Source: a virus
DNA length: 49,949 nucleotides
Virus record (IMG/VR): IMGVR_UViG_3300044556_000087
Span: 1 to 49,949 of that record
Strand: one strand, 5' to 3'
Shown: in pieces, positions 17,308 to 31,685 of the stretch
Layout: the number at the start of each line of letters is the position of its first letter
Numbering within the stretch: position 1 is the stretch's first letter
The notes under the pieces: generated by a model
Databases searched by the model: none
Told to the model about the DNA's origin: nothing
What the model saw: only the letters and a program-made list of their open reading frames with translations
Position numbers and translations under genes: made by a program

Positions 17308-17714
17308 TTGATTATGAGGACCTCATCGGTATCCCGTTTGTTAATCATGGCAGAGACCGCCGGACTGGATTTGACTGCTACGGTCTGGTCATGGAGGTAT
17401 ATCGCCGATTCGGTATCGAGCTTCCGGAATTTACGGCAGACTGGGACGACGAGGATAAGATAAACAGTATCGTACAGCGGGAAGCGGGCTCATCCTCATG
17501 GCAAAGGGTAGAACAGCCGCTCCCGGTGCCATGCCTGGTCGCGCTCCGGATGGGGACACCGCCCGGCATTGTGAATCATACCGGGGTGTACCTTGGTAAT
17601 GGTAAATTTATCCATACACGGGCGAAAATCGGTGCCTGCATCAGCCGGATAGACTCTCCGGCATGGCGGGGAGTTATTGAAGGATTTTATGTATACAGGG
17701 GGCAGCAGACATGA
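17304..17714 (+). CDS. Tail tip NlpC/P60 peptidase (lambda gpK-like, lacking the MPN half)
   Basis: GFDCYGLVMEVYRRFGIELP ... NHTGVYLGNGKFIHT gives the Cys/His/His pattern of NlpC/P60. Overlaps neighbours by 4 nt on both sides. Confidence 0.8.
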   Translation: MIDYEDLIGIPFVNHGRDRRTGFDCYGLVMEVYRRFGIELPEFTADWDDEDKINSIVQREAGSSSWQRVEQPLPVPCLVALRMGTPPGIVNHTGVYLGNGKFIHTRAKIGACISRIDSPAWRGVIEGFYVYRGQQT

Positions 17715-20700
17715 TTACGGTTGTTTTCGTCAAAAACCCGTTCGAACCGCAGAAGAACCGGGAGGTCCATACGCTGCCCTATACCAAAGGCAAGAACGTT
17801 GATTACTATGTACAGCAGTGCACGAAAGAGCTCACGCTGCCGGACATGGTCATTTCCCGGAACAGCTATACCATAAACGGTGCCCAGCTGGTAAAGGATA
17901 ATGACTTTATCGTATTTGCTCCGGTCGTCGGTAAAGGTCATGGGAAGAACCCGCTGCTCATCATAGCAACGGTGGCCCTGTCCGTCGTGGCCATGGGTGT
18001 TGGTGGATGGGTGGCATCCGGTTTTACGTCATACGGGGCTGCGGGTTTAGCTGGCGCTTCAGGCTTTGCTGCTATTGGCGGGTATCTGGCCGCAGCGGCA
18101 GTCATGTTTGTCGGCGGTACGCTCATCCAGCGGGCTTTCGGAACTGCTAATGTGAGCGGGTATAAGAGTAGTTCGGAAAATCCGACCTACTCGTGGTCCG
18201 GTATCCAGACGACAACAGGGCAGGATAATCCGATTCCGATTACATACGGGACGGTCCGCAGCGGTGGCCAGACCATCGGCAAATACATCACGTCTGACTC
18301 GGATAAACAATATCTTAACTGGCTCGTTTCTGCCGGATACGGCCCGCTAAAGATTTACGATGTACAGCTTAATGATAATCCGATTGAAAACTATAAGGAC
18401 GTTAAGCTGGATACCCGGAGCGGGACGAATGATCAGGACATTATCCCGACATTTAACGATACTATCAGCACGAAGACATTAGGGTATGAGCTGCTGGACG
18501 ATGCCTGGCGTACGGACCTGGTAACCGGCACAGCGACTCAGGGGCTCATCATCTATGTAGAATGCTCGAACGGCTTGTATTATGCCAATGATAAAGGCGG
18601 GCTCGATGAGACATTTGTTGAAATCAAGGCCCAATATGCGCCGGAAGGCTCGTCTGACTGGAAAGATTTCCTGAGTCCGCATCATTATCTCGAGTCCAAG
18701 ACGAAATACCTCACACTCAATGACGATGCAGCCCCTATCGGCGAATACGATATCAAATTTAAGAAAAGCGGGGATAGCTGCACTATCACTGTTGGCCAAT
18801 ACAGCACGACCTATGTGACGAAACCGGAACGGACGATTGCTGTCGGTCCGTTTAACTGGGTCACGACGCATGAATTTAGCGCATGGGAAGCCATATTTCA
18901 GGGAAAAGCTTACGTTCGGGCGACGAAGGAATCAGCAGACAACGGCATGATTAAGGGCAATAAGTCATCTGCTATCCGTCGTCAGTATCGGGTGGATAAC
19001 CTGCCTGCAGGTCAGTATCAGGTCCGGATTAAAGTCACATCCCGGGGCTATCCTGTGACTTCGACACGTGCGGCAACACGTATCTGGTGGACCGGGGTTA
19101 GCGGCATCGTGTACGACGATTTTACCTACCCGAACATTGCCCTTATCGGCATCCGGGCCATGGCTACGGACCAGCTGTCCGGCTCTCCGACCCTGAAATT
19201 CATGAAACAGCGGTCTACGGTCTACGTCTGGAACCCGGCAACGAGCGCCTACGAAGAACACGATGCTACGAACCCAGCCTGGGCTGCTTATGATATGGTG
19301 CACCGGGCTAATAAAATAACGGATGCCCGAAACGGGAATACGGTCTATGTACACAGCGGAGCCGATGCCTCGCTGATGCTCTATAATCAATTTGCTGAAT
19401 GGGCGGCATATTGTGACCAGTTTAAACTTAAAATCAATATCGAAATCAACACGTCTGGAGAAATGCTGGACGTCGTGAACCGCTATATAGCTCCTGTCGG
19501 TCGTGGCATCGTCGAACTTTTTGGCACTAAATATGGCTGCTGTTGGGATGGCCCGAAAGAGGCGGTCCAGATGTTCGGCATGGGTAATATCATCACCGGG
19601 ACATTTTCTGAGACATTCCTGCAGACCTCGGACCGGGCGAATGCCGTCGAACTGACGTTTACCAACGCCCAGAAAGACTATGAACGGGATACGGTCAAGG
19701 TCTTCGGGCCTACGTTTGACACGGATGAATACGATACAACAAGCCAGCTCACCTATGACGGTATCACAGGCTATGAGCAGGCATACAGAGAGGCTAAATT
19801 CCAGCTGTACTGCAATGCCTACATGGTCCGTACGGTGTCGTTCCAGGCGGCGATTGACGCCATCGCCTGCACGGTCGGCGACGTCATCTACGTTGCTCAC
19901 GATGTGCCGATGTGGCAGACCAGCGGCAGGATAGCCGCCGTCGATGCGAATACCGTGACGGTCAATGCCGTGATGCGGTCCTATGACAGCTCGAAAACGT
20001 ATACCTTCGCGTATCGGTCCTCAGCGAATGATACCCGGTACGAAATCGGATGCTCCTCGATTACTGTCGGCGACTCGACGACAACAGTCGTCTTATCAAG
20101 TGTACCGGAATCGGCACCGGCTGTCGGGGATATCTTCGATATTGCAGAGGTGAGCAAAGGGACGAAAAAATTCGTAGTCCGCTCCATCAGCCGTACCGAG
20201 GACATGGTCCGGGAAATCGAGGCTATCGAATATAACGAGAACGTGTTTAACGAAAATTACACTATCCCGCCGATGAACTACAGCGACGCCGAGGACGATA
20301 ACGACGTCCGGAACGTCACGAATCTGACCGGACGTCAGATTAACTGGAAGGACAGCTCAGGCCAGCGGCATGCGCGACTGTATCTCTCCTGGTCTTACCC
20401 GGAACGGATGAGCTATCAGCGATTCACGATTTTCCTATCCAGCGACAATTCGTCCTACGTTACCGCTGGGTCATCCATCAACATGTATTTCGAGACTGAG
20501 GTCAACGTTGAGACGACATATCTCGTAAAGGTCGTCACGGTCAACCATCTGCGCAATTCGACCGGCACGACGATTAAAGTCGAGCCGGGCACCGATGAAC
20601 CGCCGGCAGACGTCAAGGCACTCAACGTCGAAAAGATGAGCTCCGGCCTGCGCCGGTACTGGTGGGAATTTACCTATCCAGACCCGGACGACATCGCAGG

Positions 20701-21643
20701 GTTCCGTATGAAGTATACCCAGGGGACAACGCTCAACTGGGGAAACGGCATCCCTGTACAGGATGGGCTCATCACCAGTCAGCCATACGAAACGCAGACG
20801 GTCCGGCAGGGTGTCCATGCAGTCATGATTAAGGCTGTCGACAATGCGGGAAACGAGAGCATCAATTTCGCGTACTGCCTGCTGGATATGGGCGACCTGC
20901 TCGAACAAAACGTTCTGTATTACAAAGACTATGCCGCCAATAACTGGGCAGAAACAAAGCATAACGGCTACCTTGAAACAGACGGCTATCTGTATCCGGT
21001 CAACAATACGGATATGTGGGAATCGGCTGCCAGCTACCGCTGGGATAATGCCGATGCCGCTGCCTGGTCGAACAACTGGCAGCCGTACACCGTGACTGCC
21101 GAGTTTACCGCTCCCGTTAGCGGTCAGATGTGGTTAAAATACGATATCGACGGTCCGGCCATCGTCTACTATCGCGAGGTGCTGGATACGGCAGCATGGG
21201 ACAGCGACGATGCGCCAGCGTGGATCAGCGTCAATACGGCTGCCTGGGAACTTGACGAAATGAAACTCTGGAAACAGTATTCTGACCGCATCAACATTGC
21301 AGCCGGCGATGAAATCCAGATCCAGATAGTCGCCTTGAACAACAACAACGAAAAAACGGTCGTCAAAGGGCTGTCGGTATACATCGACGTCCCAGACCGG
21401 AACGAACATTTCGAGGATCTGACGATTCCGGCGACAGGGATTGAACTGCCGATAGTGACACCGCACTATCACACGACAGCGGTGCACATCGACTCGGTAC
21501 AGGGCGGCAGCTCGACGACCATCCTGCAGCCGGTCATCGTGAGCCGGAATCCATGCGTGGTGAAACTCATCAACCAGAACGGAGAGGCCGTAGCCGGCAC
21601 GGTCGATATCAGCTGGCAGGGATACGTAGAGGAGGTTTTATAA
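17711..21643 (+). CDS. Fused tail assembly protein I-like / host specificity protein J-like central tip protein
   Basis: Residues 1-75 resemble the gpI beta-grasp part, followed by a Gly/Ala-rich hydrophobic stretch and PIPITYGTVRSGGQ. The later YPNIALIGIRAMATDQLSG...NPAWAAYDMVHR...AEWAAYCDQ parallels lambda J (YPNTALVGVQVDSEQFG...NMAWCLWDMLTHPRYG...IGQYCDQ). Confidence 0.85.
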   Translation: MITVVFVKNPFEPQKNREVHTLPYTKGKNVDYYVQQCTKELTLPDMVISRNSYTINGAQLVKDNDFIVFAPVVGKGHGKNPLLIIATVALSVVAMGVGGWVASGFTSYGAAGLAGASGFAAIGGYLAAAAVMFVGGTLIQRAFGTANVSGYKSSSENPTYSWSGIQTTTGQDNPIPITYGTVRSGGQTIGKYITSDSDKQYLNWLVSAGYGPLKIYDVQLNDNPIENYKDVKLDTRSGTNDQDIIPTFNDTISTKTLGYELLDDAWRTDLVTGTATQGLIIYVECSNGLYYANDKGGLDETFVEIKAQYAPEGSSDWKDFLSPHHYLESKTKYLTLNDDAAPIGEYDIKFKKSGDSCTITVGQYSTTYVTKPERTIAVGPFNWVTTHEFSAWEAIFQGKAYVRATKESADNGMIKGNKSSAIRRQYRVDNLPAGQYQVRIKVTSRGYPVTSTRAATRIWWTGVSGIVYDDFTYPNIALIGIRAMATDQLSGSPTLKFMKQRSTVYVWNPATSAYEEHDATNPAWAAYDMVHRANKITDARNGNTVYVHSGADASLMLYNQFAEWAAYCDQFKLKINIEINTSGEMLDVVNRYIAPVGRGIVELFGTKYGCCWDGPKEAVQMFGMGNIITGTFSETFLQTSDRANAVELTFTNAQKDYERDTVKVFGPTFDTDEYDTTSQLTYDGITGYEQAYREAKFQLYCNAYMVRTVSFQAAIDAIACTVGDVIYVAHDVPMWQTSGRIAAVDANTVTVNAVMRSYDSSKTYTFAYRSSANDTRYEIGCSSITVGDSTTTVVLSSVPESAPAVGDIFDIAEVSKGTKKFVVRSISRTEDMVREIEAIEYNENVFNENYTIPPMNYSDAEDDNDVRNVTNLTGRQINWKDSSGQRHARLYLSWSYPERMSYQRFTIFLSSDNSSYVTAGSSINMYFETEVNVETTYLVKVVTVNHLRNSTGTTIKVEPGTDEPPADVKALNVEKMSSGLRRYWWEFTYPDPDDIAGFRMKYTQGTTLNWGNGIPVQDGLITSQPYETQTVRQGVHAVMIKAVDNAGNESINFAYCLLDMGDLLEQNVLYYKDYAANNWAETKHNGYLETDGYLYPVNNTDMWESAASYRWDNADAAAWSNNWQPYTVTAEFTAPVSGQMWLKYDIDGPAIVYYREVLDTAAWDSDDAPAWISVNTAAWELDEMKLWKQYSDRINIAAGDEIQIQIVALNNNNEKTVVKGLSVYIDVPDRNEHFEDLTIPATGIELPIVTPHYHTTAVHIDSVQGGSSTTILQPVIVSRNPCVVKLINQNGEAVAGTVDISWQGYVEEVL

Positions 21644-22573
21644 ATGGCAGATGTAGAGAAATTGCTGGATGTCGCGCCATACCTGAAATACCCGTCGGAT
21701 GAAAGCCCAACGACTGAACAGCAGTATCAGGATTTTGTTAAAAACGTACATACGACATTAGCGAATACGCTGAACACGGTGAAACTGTGGCAACCGTCTA
21801 CGGCATATGCTGCGGACGAAATCATCTCCAGCCCGAATATGCAGCCGAACACGGTGGCCAAGGTCACGACAGCAGGTACCAGCAACAATATCGAGCCGAC
21901 CTGGACCGCTGCCGGAACGACTGTCGAAGACAACGGCTGCACGTATCTGATGGTCAGGAAATGCCAGGAATCGGCAACAGCCGACGAGGCCAAGGCCGGA
22001 ACGGATACGATGAAAATCGTCACACCGGCAGCACTGGCCGCGGTGCTGGCAGACTTTAAAAAACAAGTCATCAACGCGGCTCATCCGGTCGGAGAAATCT
22101 GGGAAACGACGACCGGCGACGACCCGAATAAACTCTGGTCATGGCAGAAATGGGTCAAGATGGACGCCGGCCGTGTGCTGGTAAGTGCCGGTACATACAC
22201 CGAAAACGGGACGTCGTACACGTACACACTCGGGGCAACCGGTGGCGAGGCGAAGCACACAATCACCATCAGTGAAATAGCATCACACAATCACGGTGCC
22301 AGCATCAGTACAGCTAATCTGACAGGTACCTGGTCAGCTAGTGGCTCACAGGGCCTTTCCAACAGCCCGAGCAATAGTTTTAGTGGCATCATCAGCGGTT
22401 CCGACTGGTCCGGTGATACTCACAGTGGCAGTAATGGTAATAACACACCAAAGACAATCACGATTAACGCCAGCCATAGCCACTCCGTTACGATAAACAC
22501 GACCGGCAACGGCTCAGCACACGAAAACCGCATGCCTTACACTGTAGTCAACCGTTGGAAGAGGACAGCCTAG
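21644..22573 (+). CDS. Tail fibre A (tail-collar-type receptor-binding protein), expressed copy
   Basis: 309 aa. LWQPSTAYAADEIISSP...EPTWTAAGTTV, DEAKAGTDTMKIVTPAAL, HPVGEIWETT...GGEAKHTITISEIASHNHG, and C-terminal GSAHENRMPYTVVNRWKRTA (collar-domain-like HxH / HxN-PY motifs). Confidence 0.8.
   Translation: MADVEKLLDVAPYLKYPSDESPTTEQQYQDFVKNVHTTLANTLNTVKLWQPSTAYAADEIISSPNMQPNTVAKVTTAGTSNNIEPTWTAAGTTVEDNGCTYLMVRKCQESATADEAKAGTDTMKIVTPAALAAVLADFKKQVINAAHPVGEIWETTTGDDPNKLWSWQKWVKMDAGRVLVSAGTYTENGTSYTYTLGATGGEAKHTITISEIASHNHGASISTANLTGTWSASGSQGLSNSPSNSFSGIISGSDWSGDTHSGSNGNNTPKTITINASHSHSVTINTTGNGSAHENRMPYTVVNRWKRTA
22268..22278 (+). repeat. Candidate crossover site A-left (ATCAGTGAAAT) inside fibre A
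   Basis: 11-bp core encoding (T)ISE(I). Its exact reverse complement is at 22871-22881, in the same codon register of the inverted cassette. Confidence 0.6.
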
Positions 22574-22881
22574 GCCGTCCGTTTCCAGCGATTAATAACT
22601 TGATAGGGCTGCCGGTTTTCATGCGCAGAACCAGAGCCCGTAGCGGAAATGCTGATATTGTGGTTATGCGAAGCTTTAATATACAACGCTCTGGTAGCAT
22701 CATTGTAATTTGATTGCCCTGTATGCACGCCATAGCGGCCGGCTGATACCGAGATTACGCCACTAGTCGATACAGAGGATGCGGCAAGTATCCCCATATT
22801 ACTATCAGTCGAGGTGATTGACCCGCTAAGGGATGTCGTTGAGCACGAAACATTGTGATCGTGAGTAGCCATTTCACTGAT
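22570..22881 (-). other. Silent inverted alternative C-terminal cassette for fibre A (about 100 aa)
   Basis: Minus-strand frame reads TISEMATHDHNVSCS...ASHNHNISISATGSGSAHENRQPYQVINRWKRTA*. It has the same start and end motifs as the expressed tip with a different middle. No RBS or promoter of its own; the ATG of track ORF 22570..22917 lies in the antisense of the next gene's RBS. Confidence 0.75.
22871..22881 (-). repeat. Candidate crossover site A-right (inverted copy of ATCAGTGAAAT)
   Basis: atttcactgat on the + strand is the reverse complement of 22268-22278. Flanking bases keep partial similarity (..GC....CAC.ATCAC..TG). Confidence 0.6.
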
Positions 22882-22902
22882 AGTTCGAAAGGAGAGATGT
22901 AT

Positions 22903-23352
22903 ATGAAGGTTTTTCAAATTTTAAAAGGACAGGTCCTCGTCATTGACGGGGACAAGCAATACTCGGATACCGTCGATAATTTCAAGACCGATGCTGGCCT
23001 TTCCAGCACTCCTGATATGGTCATCTACGACGACAATCAGGAGTGCTGTGTCGTCGATGGCAATTTTCTCGCCTACCCGAACGCACTCTATCAGTCGTAT
23101 ATCGACCGTATCGCTGAGCTCATCGCGGCCAAGGCTAAGCGCGAGTATGTCGCACCAGCCGAGCCAACCGCCGAAGAAAAGCTGGCCGCTGCGAAAGCAC
23201 AGCTCAAAGCCGATTATGAGGCCGCTGTGGAGTCGCTGACGTCTGATATGGCCACGGCACTGCTCCGGGGCGATACCGATGCCCAGAAGTCTATCCAGTC
23301 CGATTTTGCAGATTTACAGGATGCATACAAAGAAGAAAGCGAGGCACTCTAA
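22903..23352 (+). CDS. Hypothetical protein, possible fibre assembly/accessory protein
   Basis: ATG 22903 follows aaaggagag. 149 aa with a helical Ala/Glu/Lys-rich C-terminus. Lies between the two fibre loci. The functional guess is positional only. Confidence 0.55.
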   Translation: MKVFQILKGQVLVIDGDKQYSDTVDNFKTDAGLSSTPDMVIYDDNQECCVVDGNFLAYPNALYQSYIDRIAELIAAKAKREYVAPAEPTAEEKLAAAKAQLKADYEAAVESLTSDMATALLRGDTDAQKSIQSDFADLQDAYKEESEAL

Positions 23353-23486
23353 TGAAATTCAAACTCCCGAAACGCTGCGAATACTGCGCTCATAAATTAG
23401 TCGATGGTAAATGCGTCAATCCTGACTGCATCGCCTACACGAAACCGGAAACGACGACCACAGAAACGGCAGGTGACAGCAAATGA
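23352..23486 (+). CDS. Small zinc-ribbon-like hypothetical protein (44 aa)
   Basis: MKFKLPKRCEYCAHKLVDGKCVNPDCIAYTK... Start overlaps the previous stop (TAATG) and the stop overlaps the fibre B start (ATGA). Below the ORF-track size cutoff. Confidence 0.4.
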   Translation: MKFKLPKRCEYCAHKLVDGKCVNPDCIAYTKPETTTTETAGDSK

Positions 23487-24352
23487 GCATCCCGGCAGTA
23501 AAGAGTTTTACGAATTACAACAAATATAAAACCGAAACAGGGTACACCAAGCAGGGCGAACTGCAGCAGTACCTGCAGAACCAGAACGACGTACTAAGCG
23601 CCACAGCACAGGTCCTGCTCTGGCAGCCGGAAACATTGTACACCGCAGGCCAGCTGGTCTCCAGTCCATCCATGACGGCAGGGACGCTGGCACGGGTCAC
23701 AACGGCCGGGAAGACCAGTGACACGGAGCCAACCTGGACCGCATCAGGGACAACGGTAACGGACGGTACCGTCACATGGACGGTCACGAAAGCCGTCACG
23801 GACGCCGACAAAGCCACGAGCGACGAGGCTAAAGCGGGGACCAGTGACAAAGTCATCACGGCATCAACACTCAAAGCCGCCATGGATGCCGCTATCTCGT
23901 CAGCCATCAAGACGGCCACAGCAGCCATCGAGAAGCAGGTCAAGTTGGACGCACATCCTGTCGGCTCGTACTATTTTTCCGATGACAGCACGAGCCCTGC
24001 CGACCTTTTCGGAGGCACGTGGGAAGCACTGCCAGCAGGTTACACGCTCATCGCGCAGGGCTCTGGCACCGATGATTTCGGCTCGTTTAGCTACACGGCT
24101 GGACAGAAATACGGGGAACGACTCCACAAACTCACCGTCGATGAATTGGCATCACATTCGCACAGCTATACAACTATTCCTAAGACATGGGACCAAGTAA
24201 ATTACAGTAAAGATGATTTAGCTAACTGGAACGAATCGGCACGTCAGGCATCGGCAGGCGTTACATACTGGACTGATTCAACAGGCGGCGACAAAGCTCA
24301 TAATAATGTTCCGCCGGTTAAAGCCGTATATGCATGGCTTCGTATAGCCTGA
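23483..24352 (+). CDS. Tail fibre B (paralogue of fibre A), expressed copy with tip V1
   Basis: 289 aa. LLWQPETLYTAGQLVSSP...EPTWTASGTTV, SDEAKAGTSDKVITASTL, HPVGSYYFSDD...ERLHKLTVDELASHSHS, and C-terminus AHNNVPPVKAVYAWLRIA. Confidence 0.8.
   Translation: MSIPAVKSFTNYNKYKTETGYTKQGELQQYLQNQNDVLSATAQVLLWQPETLYTAGQLVSSPSMTAGTLARVTTAGKTSDTEPTWTASGTTVTDGTVTWTVTKAVTDADKATSDEAKAGTSDKVITASTLKAAMDAAISSAIKTATAAIEKQVKLDAHPVGSYYFSDDSTSPADLFGGTWEALPAGYTLIAQGSGTDDFGSFSYTAGQKYGERLHKLTVDELASHSHSYTTIPKTWDQVNYSKDDLANWNESARQASAGVTYWTDSTGGDKAHNNVPPVKAVYAWLRIA
24135..24147 (+). repeat. Candidate crossover site B-S1 (CCGTCGATGAATT) in expressed fibre B
   Basis: Encodes (T)VDEL. The same core in the same codon register heads every downstream cassette. 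Confidence 0.6.
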
Positions 24353-24355
24353 GCG

Positions 24356-24368
24356 CCGTCGAGGAATT
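24356..24368 (+). repeat. Candidate crossover site B-S2 (CCGTCGAGGAATT)
   Basis: One mismatch to S1. Starts 4 nt after the fibre B stop codon. Confidence 0.5.
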
Positions 24369-24573
24369 ACCGAACCATCATCATGCTATATATGCCGGAT
24401 ACGGCTACGATACAAGTGGCACTGCAGATGCTTACTGTTATCAGCATTGGGCTAATAACGACCAAAGGTGGCATGAAGAAGATACTATCAGCACGTCTTA
24501 TATCGGAGGTGGGACTGCCCATGCGAATCTGTCACCCAGTGTTGCAGTGTATGGCTGGAAACGTACCGCCTAG
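24356..24573 (+). other. Silent direct-orientation cassette V2 for fibre B
   Basis: Reads AVEELPNHHHAIYAGYGYDTSG...GGGTAHANLSPSVAVYGWKRTA*. The ATG of track ORF 24334..24573 lies inside the fibre B 3' end and has no RBS. Confidence 0.7.
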
Positions 24574-24577
24574 CGGC

Positions 24578-24589
24578 CCGTCGATGAAT
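24578..24589 (+). repeat. Candidate crossover site B-S3 (CCGTCGATGAAT)
   Basis: 12/12 match to S1. Starts 5 nt after the stop of cassette V2. Confidence 0.6.
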
Positions 24590-24795
24590 CAGCGCCACAC
24601 AACCACGGCCTTAGATTAAAAGGCGGTACATCTACAGATGCTAAGGACTGCTTTTTATGGGATTGGACTACTGATTGCAAGGAATCGACTCAGCCTAACG
24701 ACTCGTGGGATTTTATAGAACCATCAGGAGGCGGTCAGGCACATAATAACATCCAACCATCGTTAGCGGTCTACGCTTGGCGGCGCCAAGCATAA
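24578..24795 (+). other. Silent direct-orientation cassette V3 for fibre B (no start codon at all)
   Basis: Same frame as V2, open directly after its stop: RPVDESAPHNHGLRLKGGTSTDAKDCFLWDWTTDCKESTQPNDSWDFIEPSGGGQAHNNIQPSLAVYAWRRQA* (stop 24793-24795). Absent from the ORF track because it has no Met. Confidence 0.7.
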
Positions 24796-25009
24796 ACTGC
24801 CAAAACGGGCTGAACGTTGTTATGAGCCACGTCATTGCCAATGTACTCGGTAAACACGTTGCCGCCTTTGCCATCATCAGAATTGTCTGTATCCCATGCA
24901 CAGTTTAATACGTTAAGAATTTTTTCACCAGATTGTTTGCAAGTGATGCACACCGGCGAGCCGTCTTTCCAGATGATTTTTGCCCTAACTTTAGCTAACT
25001 CATCGACGG
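24771..25009 (-). other. Silent inverted cassette V4' for fibre B
   Basis: Minus strand reads SVDELAKVRAKIIWKDGSPVCITCKQSGEK...GNDVAHNNVQPVLAVYAWRRQA*. It overlaps V3 tail-to-tail by 25 nt. Confidence 0.7.
24997..25009 (-). repeat. Candidate crossover site B-S4 (inverted; CCGTCGATGAGTT on the minus strand)
   Basis: aactcatcgacgg on the + strand. The 10-bp core CCGTCGATGA is identical to S1 and S3 but inverted. Confidence 0.6.
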
Positions 25010-25051
25010 AGAACAACTCGGACAGCATCGGGCACGTTCGGACGGCAGACA

Positions 25052-25080
25052 CCGCTTTTGTCCGCTTTTGTCCGTTTTTA
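25052..25080. repeat. Tandem 10-mers ccgcttttgt x2 plus a degenerate third copy
   Basis: accgcttttgtccgcttttgtccgttttta, lying between site S4 and the 3' end of the recombinase gene. Confidence 0.8.
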
Positions 25081-25177
25081 TCAGCATCAAGACCTAGACA
25101 AATACCGCGTTAAGCACACAGCCACAGTAGGCGGTGTGCGTGATTACACGGCCGTTGCGTCGGCTCTTAGTATCATA

Positions 25178-26146
25178 CTACACACGGTCAATAGCCTTTT
25201 TCAGGTCAGCAAGCGTCTTGTGCGTGTATACTCCCTTTGTGATGCCTGGCCGAGCATGACCGAGAATCATGCGGATGGTCGTCTCATTGACTTCGGCACG
25301 GTCGAGCAGAGTTGCCAGCGTATGGCGTGCTTCATGGGGCGTGTGCTTCATGCTGACGGCTTTCATGGCTCTATCCCAGAGACGGCGGAAGCTGTCATAA
25401 GTCGCACAAGGACAAATCTGGCCGCTTGCTTTCCGCTCGATGAGGTACGGTAAGATTTTGTGATGGATGGGGATTTTGCGGATGCCTGCCGCTGTCTTCG
25501 ATTTCTTGATGTCGATGTATCGCTGTCGCGGCTTAATGTCAGCAGGAGTCAGCGCAAGATACTCACCTACGCGCATACCCGTATAGATGAGTATGAGTAC
25601 ATCAATGACGCCGTCGACGTCGGTCGAGCGCCAGAGCTTGCCTATCTGCCTAGCCGTAAAAGGCTTTTTCTTAAACATGATAACGTGCTTAGGCAATTCC
25701 ACAAATGGGCTTAGGTCATGGTCGACGATGCCGTTTTTGATTGCCCACTTGTACATCTGCGAGAGCAGAACACGGCACTTTTTACGGGTGCAGTATCCGG
25801 CGGGGACAGCATCGACAGCGGCCTGCAAATCTGGATATGTGATTGACGCAAAAGGCATGGCATGGAGCTGCTCTAGATGCCGATAGCTGATGCTATAGGC
25901 CGTCTGTGACGATTTGCCTATCATTTCAAAGTTCCTTGACCTCCATGCGTAGTAGACGGCAGTAAAGGTCAATTCTCGGGAGGGCGTGCAGTGATTCAAC
26001 TCAACCAAAAACTCGAACGCTTCTTGGTAGCTCTGGAAATATCCCAGGGCTTTTTGTTTGCCATCGATTGTCTTTTTAACGACAAACGGGCGCCGCCGAT
26101 TGCCTTGTAGTCGGTACACGGTACCATATCCATTTGGTAATTTCAT
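25178..26146 (-). CDS. Tyrosine recombinase (second integrase-family gene); candidate fibre-cassette invertase
   Basis: C-terminal ARHTLATLLDRAEVNETTIRMILGHARPGITKGVYTH (R..H..GH..Y catalytic pattern) and N-terminal KLPNGYGTVYRLQGNRRRPFVVKK arm-type domain. Likely start is ATG 26146 after ggaaagga; track ORF extends to 26191. Confidence 0.85.
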   Translation of the reverse strand: MKLPNGYGTVYRLQGNRRRPFVVKKTIDGKQKALGYFQSYQEAFEFLVELNHCTPSRELTFTAVYYAWRSRNFEMIGKSSQTAYSISYRHLEQLHAMPFASITYPDLQAAVDAVPAGYCTRKKCRVLLSQMYKWAIKNGIVDHDLSPFVELPKHVIMFKKKPFTARQIGKLWRSTDVDGVIDVLILIYTGMRVGEYLALTPADIKPRQRYIDIKKSKTAAGIRKIPIHHKILPYLIERKASGQICPCATYDSFRRLWDRAMKAVSMKHTPHEARHTLATLLDRAEVNETTIRMILGHARPGITKGVYTHKTLADLKKAIDRV

Positions 26147-26467: not shown

Positions 26468-26819
26468 AATCATCAAGCTCGGGGAGTGGGGAAAACGCCA
26501 CTGGCTCCAGCTCATCGTTATCATGGGCGTCATCATGATGACGTTCCTGGTCCTCGTCCTCATCAGCTGGCTCATCGGCTACTGGGCAAACGCTCTCCTG
26601 GGCACGAAATTTGAGCTCATGAGTTGCTGGAGCGGGGTCGCGGCTGTGGCTAGTGGCATCGCCACCATCGTCGGCCTAGGCAAGGCCTGCTGGACCAAAT
26701 ACGGATATGACAGCCGCTATAACTCCGCTGTAGGTACTATGCCTAAAGTGGCAGAAACAGCCGCCAAAGCGGCAAATATCATCGAAAAAGCGGCAACCAA
26801 AATAGAACAGAAAGGGTGA
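26454..26819 (+). CDS. Putative holin (two or three TM segments)
   Basis: WLQLIVIMGVIMMTFLVLVLISWLIGYWA and SCWSGVAAVASGIATIVGL hydrophobic helices with a charged C-terminus. Directly upstream of the lysozyme-like gene. Confidence 0.5.
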   Translation: MMKNKIIKLGEWGKRHWLQLIVIMGVIMMTFLVLVLISWLIGYWANALLGTKFELMSCWSGVAAVASGIATIVGLGKACWTKYGYDSRYNSAVGTMPKVAETAAKAANIIEKAATKIEQKG

Positions 26820-27454
26820 TGTATATGTTAGGAGATTTAAGCGCACGTTATGAGAGCAACGGCGACCCGGGCTGCATCTCAGACGGCTACGGCGACCCGG
26901 GCGGCAAATCGTACGGCACGTACCAGTTTAGCTCCAACGCAGGCAGTCTGGATGCCTTTTGCAACTGGCTGCAGTACAACTATCCGCAGTACGCGGAGCA
27001 GCTCAATACCTATCCGATGTGCAGCACCAGCTTTGATGAGGCATGGCGCAACATTGCGGCATCCGACAGCGACGGTTTTGCTCAGGCTCAGCACGAATAT
27101 GTTAAGGCGACCTACTATGACCCCGCTGTCGAGATACTGGCTAACAACTATTGGCGCATCGAAAACCACAATGCCGTCATGCAGGACGTTGTTTGGAGCC
27201 GGGCTGTGCAGTACGGTGTGGGCAACATCCTCGACATGTGGACCGAGGCCGTACACTCCATGTACAACGTGACCAGTGGCGGCTATGACGGCTATCCCAA
27301 TCTGAGCTACATCGACGCCAATGAGTACGACTATGATTTTATAGTCGCAATCTATACCGTCTGCAAAAGCGAGGAATGGAACAGCTCGGCACTTCGAGAT
27401 AGTTTAAATAACCGTTTCGACAGCGAAATGCATGATGCCCTTGCTCGTCTATAG
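26816..27454 (+). CDS. Putative endolysin (lysozyme/transglycosylase-like fold)
   Basis: LSARYESNGDPGCIS...GKSYGTYQFSS has a Glu-Ser-x-Gly context like lysozyme-like hydrolases. Lies between holin and spanin-like genes. Family not firmly recognised. Alternative starts at 26819 and 26825. Confidence 0.5.
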   Translation: MMYMLGDLSARYESNGDPGCISDGYGDPGGKSYGTYQFSSNAGSLDAFCNWLQYNYPQYAEQLNTYPMCSTSFDEAWRNIAASDSDGFAQAQHEYVKATYYDPAVEILANNYWRIENHNAVMQDVVWSRAVQYGVGNILDMWTEAVHSMYNVTSGGYDGYPNLSYIDANEYDYDFIVAIYTVCKSEEWNSSALRDSLNNRFDSEMHDALARL

Positions 27455-29580: not shown

Positions 29581-29716
29581 AGAGCTAGAGGCTAAAAGGA
29601 TTGATTTGATGCTGCAGCTATTAGCGAGCCGGCGGAAAACGGCCGCGCTGCGGGAGAAGATACGTGCCGCACATGAAAGGCATGTACGAGAAGGCCTATG
29701 CAGACCTGACACATAA
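29567..29716 (+). CDS. Small hypothetical protein (49 aa)
   Basis: ATG 29567 lies 8 nt after aggagg (29553-29558). MMTDEELEAKRIDLMLQLLASRRKTAALREKIRAAHERHVREGLCRPDT. Its stop lies in the first copy of the 22-bp tandem repeat. Confidence 0.4.
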   Translation: MMTDEELEAKRIDLMLQLLASRRKTAALREKIRAAHERHVREGLCRPDT

Positions 29717-29738
29717 CCTATGCAGACCTGACACATAA
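29695..29738. repeat. Perfect 22-bp tandem duplication cctatgcagacctgacacataa x2
   Basis: 29695-29716 is identical to 29717-29738. Confidence 0.95.
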
Positions 29739-30163: not shown

Positions 30164-30212
30164 AAAGCCCCGTCAGACCGCATACTGTCCAGTCTGAGGG
30201 GGCTTTATTTTT
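30164..30212 (+). terminator. Strong intrinsic terminator at the end of the + strand moron block
   Basis: aaagccccgtcagac ... gtctgagggggcttt (15-bp stem, one mismatch) followed by atttttcc. Confidence 0.8.
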
Positions 30213-30463
30213 CCGCTATTTCTTCCGCTATCCGCCATATTTTCTTGCATAAAACTATAATAATGAATGATAAAATATAATAGGCTACTTCCTCGATAAA
30301 TAGCGTAAAATACATGGTTCCCAGTAATCCATAGTAAGCTATAGTAACGTATAAAACATTACTTCCGATAATTTAACGGAGTCAAAAGACCCGCATAAAC
30401 ACTGGCTTCATCGGCATTCTTCCGCTATTTCTTCCGCCGAAAACTTTTTATAGCGGAAGAGCC
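30211..30463. other. Putative attP region with arm-type repeats
   Basis: 18-bp repeat ttccgctatttcttccgc at 30211-30228 and 30420-30437. The 8-mer TCCGCTAT occurs at 30212, 30224 and 30421 and inverted at 30450-30457. An AT-rich stretch lies between the clusters, directly 3' of int. Confidence 0.4.
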
Positions 30464-31570
30464 TTACAGGATGCTGTCCATCACGGAGAGAGCTTCTTTT
30501 TCGCGCTTTTCCGTGATGCTGTCATAGATATTAGCCGTCGTGTACACCGAGGCATGACCGAGGCGCTTCGAAACGTAGTCCAAGGCAATGCCGTTCTCGA
30601 TTAACATGGTAGCGTGAGTATGCCGGAACGAGTGGAAGGACAGCCCGCCGAAGTGCTCCCGGCACCAGAGGTTGAAGTACCGGGTCTTGTTGCTGGTGAG
30701 TGGTTTCCCGTTCTCCTCGGTGCACACCGCGTCCGATCGGCGGTAGTACCGTCCATACTCAAACTGGTTCCGCTCCTGCCAGAGCTTCTGGGCTTTCAGC
30801 TCGGCTGCCAATTTCTGGCCAAAGGTGATGACCCGCAGTGATGATGCAGTCTTCGGCGACTCGATACGGGCATCCCCAGTCTTATCGTATTTATTGCCTA
30901 CGACCTCCAGCGTATGCGCTTTTAGATCTACATTCGCCCAGCGCAGGGCCAGGCATTCCCCGAGCCGCATCCCGGTGCAGTAGGAGAGCATGCACGGCAT
31001 GTGGAGCTGATTCCCTCGCGGAAATCGTTCGAAAATCTGCTGAATCTGGTCAGCCGTGAAGACCTTAATCATCTGGAACTGCGGGGCATACCGGGGCACC
31101 CGTACGTTATCCATGGGGTTGATGGTAAGGTACCTGCGATTGGCCACACACCAACGGAACGAGGACCGCAGGACCGCTGCAATAGATTTCAGGGTACCTC
31201 GTGCATACGTATTCCGCAAACCCGTGATGTAGTCCTGCAGCATCGGAGTCGTGATGTCCTTCAGCCGGACCTTGGCAAAAGCAGGAGTCAGGTGATTATC
31301 GACGATGTTTTCATAGGCATCTACCGTGTTCGGTTTCAGGTTGATGCGGACTTCCTTTTCCATCCATTCCTTCAAGAAATCCGGATAGAGCATACTGGAC
31401 GGTTCGAAAAATTTCCCGGTCCGGTCTATCTCCTGCATGGCAGCACGATAAGCCCGGGCAGCCTCAGCACGGCTAAAACCGCCAAAGTGCTCGTGCTTAT
31501 GGTACCTGCCCATAGCATCCGTTTCGTTTATGGTATAGTACCATCTATCCTTGATTTGTCGTAAAAACAT
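30464..31570 (-). CDS. int: Phage integrase (tyrosine recombinase), lysogeny module
   Basis: HSFRHTHATMLIENGIALDYVSKRLGHASVYTTANIYDS catalytic region and N-terminal KDRWYYTINETD...GGFSRAEAARAY arm-binding-type domain. Likely start is ATG 31570 after aggaggctgatttac; track ORF extends to 31618. Confidence 0.9.
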   Translation of the reverse strand: MFLRQIKDRWYYTINETDAMGRYHKHEHFGGFSRAEAARAYRAAMQEIDRTGKFFEPSSMLYPDFLKEWMEKEVRINLKPNTVDAYENIVDNHLTPAFAKVRLKDITTPMLQDYITGLRNTYARGTLKSIAAVLRSSFRWCVANRRYLTINPMDNVRVPRYAPQFQMIKVFTADQIQQIFERFPRGNQLHMPCMLSYCTGMRLGECLALRWANVDLKAHTLEVVGNKYDKTGDARIESPKTASSLRVITFGQKLAAELKAQKLWQERNQFEYGRYYRRSDAVCTEENGKPLTSNKTRYFNLWCREHFGGLSFHSFRHTHATMLIENGIALDYVSKRLGHASVYTTANIYDSITEKREKEALSVMDSIL

Positions 31571-31685
31571 GTAAATCAGCCTCCTAATCATGGCGGATAG
31601 CGGGCTGATGTGGTACAATAAAACTGTAGATCAGCCCTAAATATCTACACATCGCCGGTCCGGTACTGGTAATACCATCCGGCAC

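Follow-up and report, generated by a model that had tools for sequence, protein, structure and literature searches.

How can one phage genome carry more fibre tips than it has fibre genes, and by what means could the silent ones come to be expressed? This question is raised by the region from 21,644 to 26,146 of IMG/VR virus record IMGVR_UViG_3300044556_000087, which was analysed at its full length (positions 1 to 49,949; 49,949 nucleotides, nt) and is referred to as the window. The region had been predicted, from the sequence alone, to be a shufflon-like system in which two fibre genes exchange their C-terminal tips with silent cassettes through an adjacent tyrosine recombinase. According to our analysis, it is very probable that the region contains a shufflon made up of two site-specific inversion switches, by which two paralogous fibre or receptor-binding proteins receive another C-terminal part of 70-100 residues, and inversions at the corresponding sites were observed in related phages. 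The window genome belongs to a temperate lambda-like siphovirus, with a gpA-type terminase, a lambda-type portal, an E-type capsid protein and the tail proteins L, K and J, and its host is a gut member of the Negativicutes, of the Acidaminococcus type.

Both fibre genes lie downstream of the J-like gene (17711-21643), and both encode proteins with the Pfam domain Gp10_C and a match to a PHROG tail family, namely fibre A (21644-22573, plus strand, 309 residues, E 7e-14) and fibre B (23483-24352, plus strand, 289 residues, E 1e-15). The two are paralogues, with 37% identity between their constant parts. The constant N-terminal part of fibre A (21644..22267, plus strand, 208 residues) was recognized from its open reading frame, the Gp10_C match and the homologous constant parts in relatives. 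It is followed by tip A0, which is currently expressed (22268..22573, plus strand, 101 residues), and by tip A1, a silent inverted cassette (22570..22881, minus strand, 103 residues) with 49% identity to tip A0. Read from 22881 to 22570, the A1 cassette is open, beginning with TISEMATHDH and ending with AHENRQPYQVINRWKRTA and a stop codon. The predicted crossover site A0 lies within the expressed gene (22265..22294, plus strand) in the codons for T-I-S-E-I-A-S-H-N-H, and site A1 (22855..22884, minus strand) would be the outer boundary of an invertible segment of about 590 base pairs (bp). Together they form a 30-nt inverted repeat, 80% identical, which brackets the expressed tip and the convergent silent one and contains an identical core, ATCAGTGAAAT (22268-22278 at A0, 22871-22881 at A1), confined within the window to these two sites. 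The stop codons of A0 and A1 overlap in the sequence CCTAGG (22569-22574).

At locus B, the constant N-terminal part (23483..24136, plus strand, 218 residues) is joined to the currently expressed tip B0 (24137..24352, plus strand, 71 residues), and the predicted crossover site B0 within the gene is CCGTCGATGA (24135..24144, plus strand), with the 7-nt core CCGTCGA at 24135-24141. Three silent tips, all with open frames, lie beyond the gene. B1 (24356..24573, plus strand) consists of the site CCGTCGAGGA and a direct tip of 71 residues (24358-24573), and B2 (24578..24795, plus strand) of the site CCGTCGATGA and a direct tip of 71 residues (24580-24795). B3 (24771..25009, minus strand) is inverted, with its site at 25000-25009 and a tip of 78 residues (25007-24771). 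The window holds exactly three copies of CCGTCGATGA, at 24135 (plus), 24578 (plus) and 25000 (minus), and CCGTCGAGGA at 24356 (plus) is a copy with one mismatch. When one mismatch was allowed, CCGTCGATGA gave 12 matches against 4.3 expected, a number reached in none of 100 shuffles. The core CCGTCGA is intact at all four locus-B sites, including the mismatched B1. The silent B tips start with V[DE]E and end with AH.N..P..AVY.W.R.A before the stop codon. B3 overlaps B2 by about 24 nt at the 3' end, in the near-palindrome GCTTGGCGGCGCCAAGC (24771-24795). From the opposite strands of this 24-nt near-palindrome, B2 and B3 encode the same terminal peptide AWRRQA and stop.

The two loci follow the same plan. 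The constant part of each fibre gene ends in the conserved peptide L-T-[VTI]-[DGS]-E, in the codons of which the core sits, and the same core heads each silent cassette of that locus (CCGTCGA at locus B, ATCAGTGAAAT at locus A). In the register dictated by the motif, each of the four silent tips reads through 71-103 codons without interruption, and its C-terminal peptide is of the same class as in the expressed tips. The cassettes match positions of about 70-139 of the Gp10_C profile, and the sites thus fall in the middle of the domain, within conserved codons. The original prediction was accurate on this anatomy, since the coordinates of the two paralogous Gp10_C fibre genes, the shared in-frame motif of each locus (TISE at A, VDE at B), the orientation of the cassettes (one inverted at A; one inverted and two direct at B), the preserved codon register and the repertoire of 2 x 4 tips all hold for the window. 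A sequence search of the PDB with fibre B gave no match. An AlphaFold2 model of the fibre B monomer, intended for placing the crossover in the fold, was set aside because its C-terminal domain scored only 50-65 in the predicted local distance difference test (pLDDT). A diversity-generating retroelement was also considered and rejected, as the region contains no long near-identical pair of template and variable repeats.

Are such segments inverted in nature? Contigs of Acidaminococcus intestini prophages (L004-L011), which share an identical recombinase (P0042) with 77% identity to that of the window, were compared pairwise. Their DNA is 100% identical except beside the recombinase, where inversions at sites of 13-19 nt give three states at one fibre and two at the other. 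For example, L011 differs from L004 by the inversion of a 794-bp segment, which is flanked by TCACCACCGATGAACTGCC in two opposite orientations, and L005, L006 and L007 combine this 794-bp inversion with a second one through a third site, CCACCGATGAGCT, which makes them a two-step isomer. L010 has a 580-bp inversion at the other fibre locus, bounded by copies of TCTCTGTTGATGAGATGCC. Gene calls for the fibres of these isomers differ in length (219, 233 or 186 residues; 382 or 400 residues) because the inversion state differs. The array keeps a constant length of 941 nt while its direct and inverted sites change from 3/1 to 2/2 to 1/3, which points to inversions without deletions. Each of the states was found again in independent samples and assemblers. 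Isomers were also seen in a closer lineage, P0009 (L018 and L019), whose recombinase is 88% identical to that of the window and which is the same J-type siphovirus. In L019 the expressed tip of L018 is inverted at the boundary site, with 100% identity and a 7-nt overlap, CCGTCGA, and the base after this overlap differs between the two sites (T vs G). Furthermore, L014 is rearranged with respect to L012, and L018 and L012 have locus A in opposite orientations. The comparison with related phages and prophages that the original prediction had proposed thus revealed several inverted states.

The same arrangement extends through a wide family. About 50 loci, with recombinase identities from 50% to 94%, were mapped by tblastn, and the order of elements is conserved: the constant part of fibre A, two to four tips, orf149, orf44, the constant part of fibre B, two to six tips and the recombinase. 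The recombinase stays beside the cassettes in these loci on two phage backbones. The A. intestini module sits on a myovirus backbone with a Mu-type baseplate (Mu gp48, baseplate J, sheath initiator). As the same module is found on this myovirus and on the lambda-like siphovirus of the window, it moves between phage types. The core varies by phage (GTCGATGA, ACCGATGA, GTCGGGGA or ATCAGTGA, encoding VDE, TDE, VGE or ISE); in any given genome, the expression site and all cassettes of a locus share the same core, and the two loci have different cores. Such co-variation is expected if a tyrosine recombinase matches its sites at the nucleotide level, whereas a mere protein motif would not give this pattern, and the locus-specific cores suggest that loci A and B are insulated from one another. 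As to the flanks of the sites, the left one is variable, and the core and the right one are conserved, the latter being also constrained by its codons (E-[LM]-[PA]-x-H).

Exchange at the motif is visible in the fibre proteins and in the assemblies as well. Among 71 pairs of fibre B homologues with at least 95% identity in the constant part, the tips are less than 40% identical in 67, and the break between the alike and the unlike parts falls exactly at the motif. A search with the constant part gave 32 metagenome contigs, of which six (L026, L030, L035, L045, L049 and L054) terminate no more than about 30 nt from the B site, and further contigs (L014-L017 and L019) stop just past the recombinase; such ends are the usual effect of population heterogeneity on assembly graphs. 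The fibre B site and the end of the recombinase are a systematic assembly breakpoint in metagenomes. Tip switching by inversion at an in-frame motif, which was the central claim of the original prediction, is thus supported by isomers in related phages with otherwise identical DNA, by linkage to the recombinase and by co-varying sites.

Which enzyme would perform the inversions? The putative fibre invertase is a tyrosine recombinase (25178..26146, minus strand, 322 residues, PF00589) encoded 126 bp past the last cassette, as had been described, and its six catalytic residues (R192, K217, H271, R274, H297 and Y307) are present and invariant in 37 homologues. An AlphaFold2 model (mean pLDDT 83) shows an N-terminal unit followed by the core-binding and catalytic domains. 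The modelled N-terminal domain (residues 9-51, pLDDT about 80) has three strands (9-12, 21-27 and 30-37) and a helix (40-51); no Pfam match to this N-terminus was found, and the best fold matches of the model in the PDB were Tn1549 Int and full-length lambda Int. After the catalytic Y307, the protein continues for 15 residues, to residue 322. It is distinct from the lysogeny integrase (30464-31618, minus strand, 384 residues, SAM-like N-domain), with which it shares 25% identity. Repeats that contain TTCTTCCGCTAT, two of them direct and one inverted, adjoin the integrase gene downstream (30207-30460) and probably mark the attP arm region, so the separate integrase with attP-like repeats had also been rightly noted. 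For serine invertases, a tblastn search of the window with Hin and Gin probes returned nothing better than E = 1.

Between the outermost B site and the recombinase gene, the region outside the boundary site (25013..25125, minus strand) contains two copies of GTCCGAR, a 10-bp tandem repeat and a terminator-like hairpin. The tandem repeat (25052-25079) comprises 2.8 copies of CCGCTTTTGT with phased A/T tracts, and the hairpin (25104-25122) follows the recombinase gene; apart from this hairpin, the scan for promoters and terminators was uninformative. L003, L012 and L023 keep the layout of this boundary region, with other repeat sequences, and show it at no other place in their loci. In the rest of the window, the putative arm repeat CGCTTTTGTCC shows no enrichment. 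These repeats may be arm-type, accessory or bending sites for the recombinase.

More than 1000 homologues of the recombinase exist in public data, with Acidaminococcus, Mitsuokella, Allisonella and Megasphaera, all gut Negativicutes, as the named sources. A scan of a genome collection with the recombinase gave true relatives in Megasphaera hexanoica and A. intestini only. Among isolated phages, a megablast search of genomes with the region gave no match, and the closest annotated relatives in a protein search of an isolated-phage collection were ordinary integrases with 30-35% identity. Two of these were inspected and occupy the usual position between lysis genes and repressor, without cassettes.

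On these grounds, the switch would work as follows. The adjacent recombinase, which is the likely catalyst, would bring together the core of the expressed gene and a core of opposite orientation and invert the DNA between them, so that another tip is fused in frame. At locus B, recombination of B0 with B3 would express tip B3 and turn over B0, B1 and B2, and a second inversion could then bring in any of the turned tips. Because the direct cassettes are turned over in the first inversion, none of the four tips should be more than two steps away. Locus A would toggle between its two tips, which gives the total of 2 x 4 combinations. Tyrosine recombinases require matching overlap sequences, and the cores of loci A and B differ; therefore the two switches should stay independent. 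We infer that the copy in the window is itself active, and the tips presumably set the host range.

Several points weigh against this interpretation. The only other contig of the same phage, L058 (99.9% identical), has the same order, and no second isomer was found; the isomer evidence consists of assembled contigs rather than reads. A 99.9% identical fragment occurs in JGI sample 3300043933. It is linkage that points to the adjacent recombinase as the catalyst, and its closest annotated homologues are the ordinary integrases described above. The base that precedes the 11 nt common to A0 and A1 differs between the two sites, and a single mismatch follows CCGTCGA at B1, which leaves some latitude for the exact overlap register. 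Deletion between direct sites would also have to be avoided.

Three other explanations were weighed. The one that survives best, though it is unlikely, holds that the family shuffles but that the window cassettes are relics frozen in a fixed order. The single configuration shared by the window and L058 is what such relics would show, and the mismatch in site B1 and the modest identity of A0 and A1 (80% over 30 nt) could be read as decay. However, all four silent tips have kept frames of 71-103 codons, the CCGTCGA core is whole at every B site, the mismatched GAG variant of site B1 serves at an expression site in L018, and the recombinase is intact, all of which argue for a working switch. It is very unlikely that the inversions are real but catalysed in trans, by the lysogeny integrase (30464-31618), a host Xer-type enzyme or another invertase, and that the adjacent recombinase does something else. 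This would agree with the kinship of the enzyme to integrases and with a link between enzyme and sites that is one of gene neighbourhood, but the recombinase follows the array in every locus with enough sequence, in siphoviruses and myoviruses and down to about 50% identity, and the window already has a separate integrase with its own attP-like repeats. Finally, all the isomers come from short-read assemblies, in which they could have been created by assembly errors at short repeats, or they could stem from homologous exchange during co-infection. Either origin is extremely unlikely, because assembler k-mers are longer than the repeats (7-19 nt), independent samples and assemblers yielded each isomer again, and the rearrangements are reciprocal, their junctions lying exactly on the sites and no sequence being lost.

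How does the inversion switch of the window compare with known systems? Multi-cassette switching by a serine invertase (p15B Min) and the Rci shufflon of R64 predate the tyrosine shufflons of phages. Like the switches of Mu Gin, P1 Cin, e14 Pin and p15B Min, that of the window would exchange the C-terminal ends of phage tail fibres by inversion, and as in p15B Min there are multiple cassettes. However, those enzymes belong to another superfamily with another chemistry, whereas the gene adjacent to the window array belongs to PF00589, and the window segments hold no fibre-assembly (U-like) genes. The R64 system (Rci acting on sfx sites of pilV) resembles that of the window in its tyrosine recombinase, its many sites in both orientations, its swapping of C-termini by inversions only, and a core of about 7 bp. 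The sites of R64 vary more on the left of the core than on the right, and those of the window may be of this kind, though codon constraint also acts on their right side. It differs in serving a plasmid pilus adhesin rather than a phage fibre. Rci has been ascribed an extra C-terminal domain (10.1101/2024.10.25.620183). The window recombinase ends 15 residues past the tyrosine and therefore lacks a domain of this type, having an N-terminal domain instead.

The original prediction drew its contrast with serine invertases and R64 only, and the novelty this implied does not stand, because phage shufflons in which tyrosine invertases act on receptor-binding proteins have been published since 2018 (PMC6109161; PMC8778435; PMC13596623). 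The Rin shufflon of Bifidobacterium prophages was the first phage-encoded tyrosine-family invertase reported to act on the C-termini of receptor-binding proteins (Mavrich et al. 2018; PMC6109161), and Rin shufflons were later found in Eggerthella prophages (PMC8778435). The window system resembles Rin in being phage-encoded and in its gene plan, in which the N-terminal coding part of the receptor-binding protein stays constant and precedes an array of alternative C-terminal cassettes, each headed by a short repeat. In both systems a tyrosine recombinase lies next to the array in addition to the integrase of the phage, and isomers occur among prophages, here in relatives of the window phage. 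Unlike Rin, the window system belongs to phages of Negativicutes rather than Actinobacteria, its fibres are of the Gp10_C type rather than the TP901-1 or 1358 type, there are two fibre loci with distinct cores instead of one locus, and the sites lie inside conserved codons, whereas Rin sites lie upstream of separate Rv genes. The published description of Rin is of an armless, XerD-like enzyme; the model of the window enzyme, in contrast, has an N-terminal domain of three strands and a helix like that of lambda Int. BV01-like phages of Phocaeicola vulgatus (PMC13596623) also have a tail-fibre shufflon with a recombinase at its flank, in which a multi-cassette array overlaps the distal end of the fibre gene, as in the window. 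That array has 10-bp directional motifs, and all its configurations were seen in reads. Host and fibre differ from those of the window, and the array is presented there as a single locus with an unrelated motif, TGGGAGAACT.

In the open-access literature, no papers linking a shufflon to Negativicutes phages were found. The kind of switch is therefore already known, and what is new is its presence in phages of the Negativicutes and the existence of two loci with different cores under one recombinase, together with an integrase-like recombinase whose N-terminal domain is modelled as an arm-type fold. A broader proposal, which we regard as possible but rather doubtful, is that these enzymes form an undescribed family of integrase-type tyrosine recombinases with an arm-type N-terminal domain, recruited to serve as invertases alone and portable among siphoviruses and myoviruses of Negativicutes together with Gp10_C cassettes, in which two shufflons are kept apart by their cores and the repeats at the boundary bias the reaction to inversion. 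If the shufflon interpretation is true, one Negativicutes gut phage genome could encode up to eight receptor-binding combinations, which bears on host-range estimates and on phage-host linking in gut viromes, and the switch would account for the recurrent breaks of metagenome contigs at these loci. The family would also provide compact, naturally orthogonal sets of recombinases and sites (7-11-nt cores in frame), possibly useful for synthetic shufflons, and would make it possible to study what confines an integrase-like enzyme to inversion.

Two conserved genes lie between the fibre loci. The first, orf149 (22903..23352, plus strand, 149 residues), matches phrog_32639, a family of unknown function, and is present in relatives; its start is most likely the ATG at 22903, with the ribosome-binding site AGGAGAG, rather than the GTG at 22855. 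The second, orf44 (23352..23486, plus strand), encodes a four-cysteine mini-protein of 44 residues (zinc-ribbon-like) and is kept in L001, L003 and L012, where the protein is 98-100% identical at about 92% nucleotide identity. By these alignments, no other protein of the module is as strongly conserved. The fibres of the relatives that keep orf44 at 98-100% are just 61-88% identical. Beyond the recombinase, a putative endolysin (26816-27454) matches the C-terminal domain of VgrG3, a spike protein of the type VI secretion system (PF21277, E 3e-39), and the endolysin position in relatives is occupied by the same enzyme or by an Amidase_2 enzyme. A perfect 22-bp tandem duplication, two copies of CCTATGCAGACCTGACACATAA, is present at 29695-29738.

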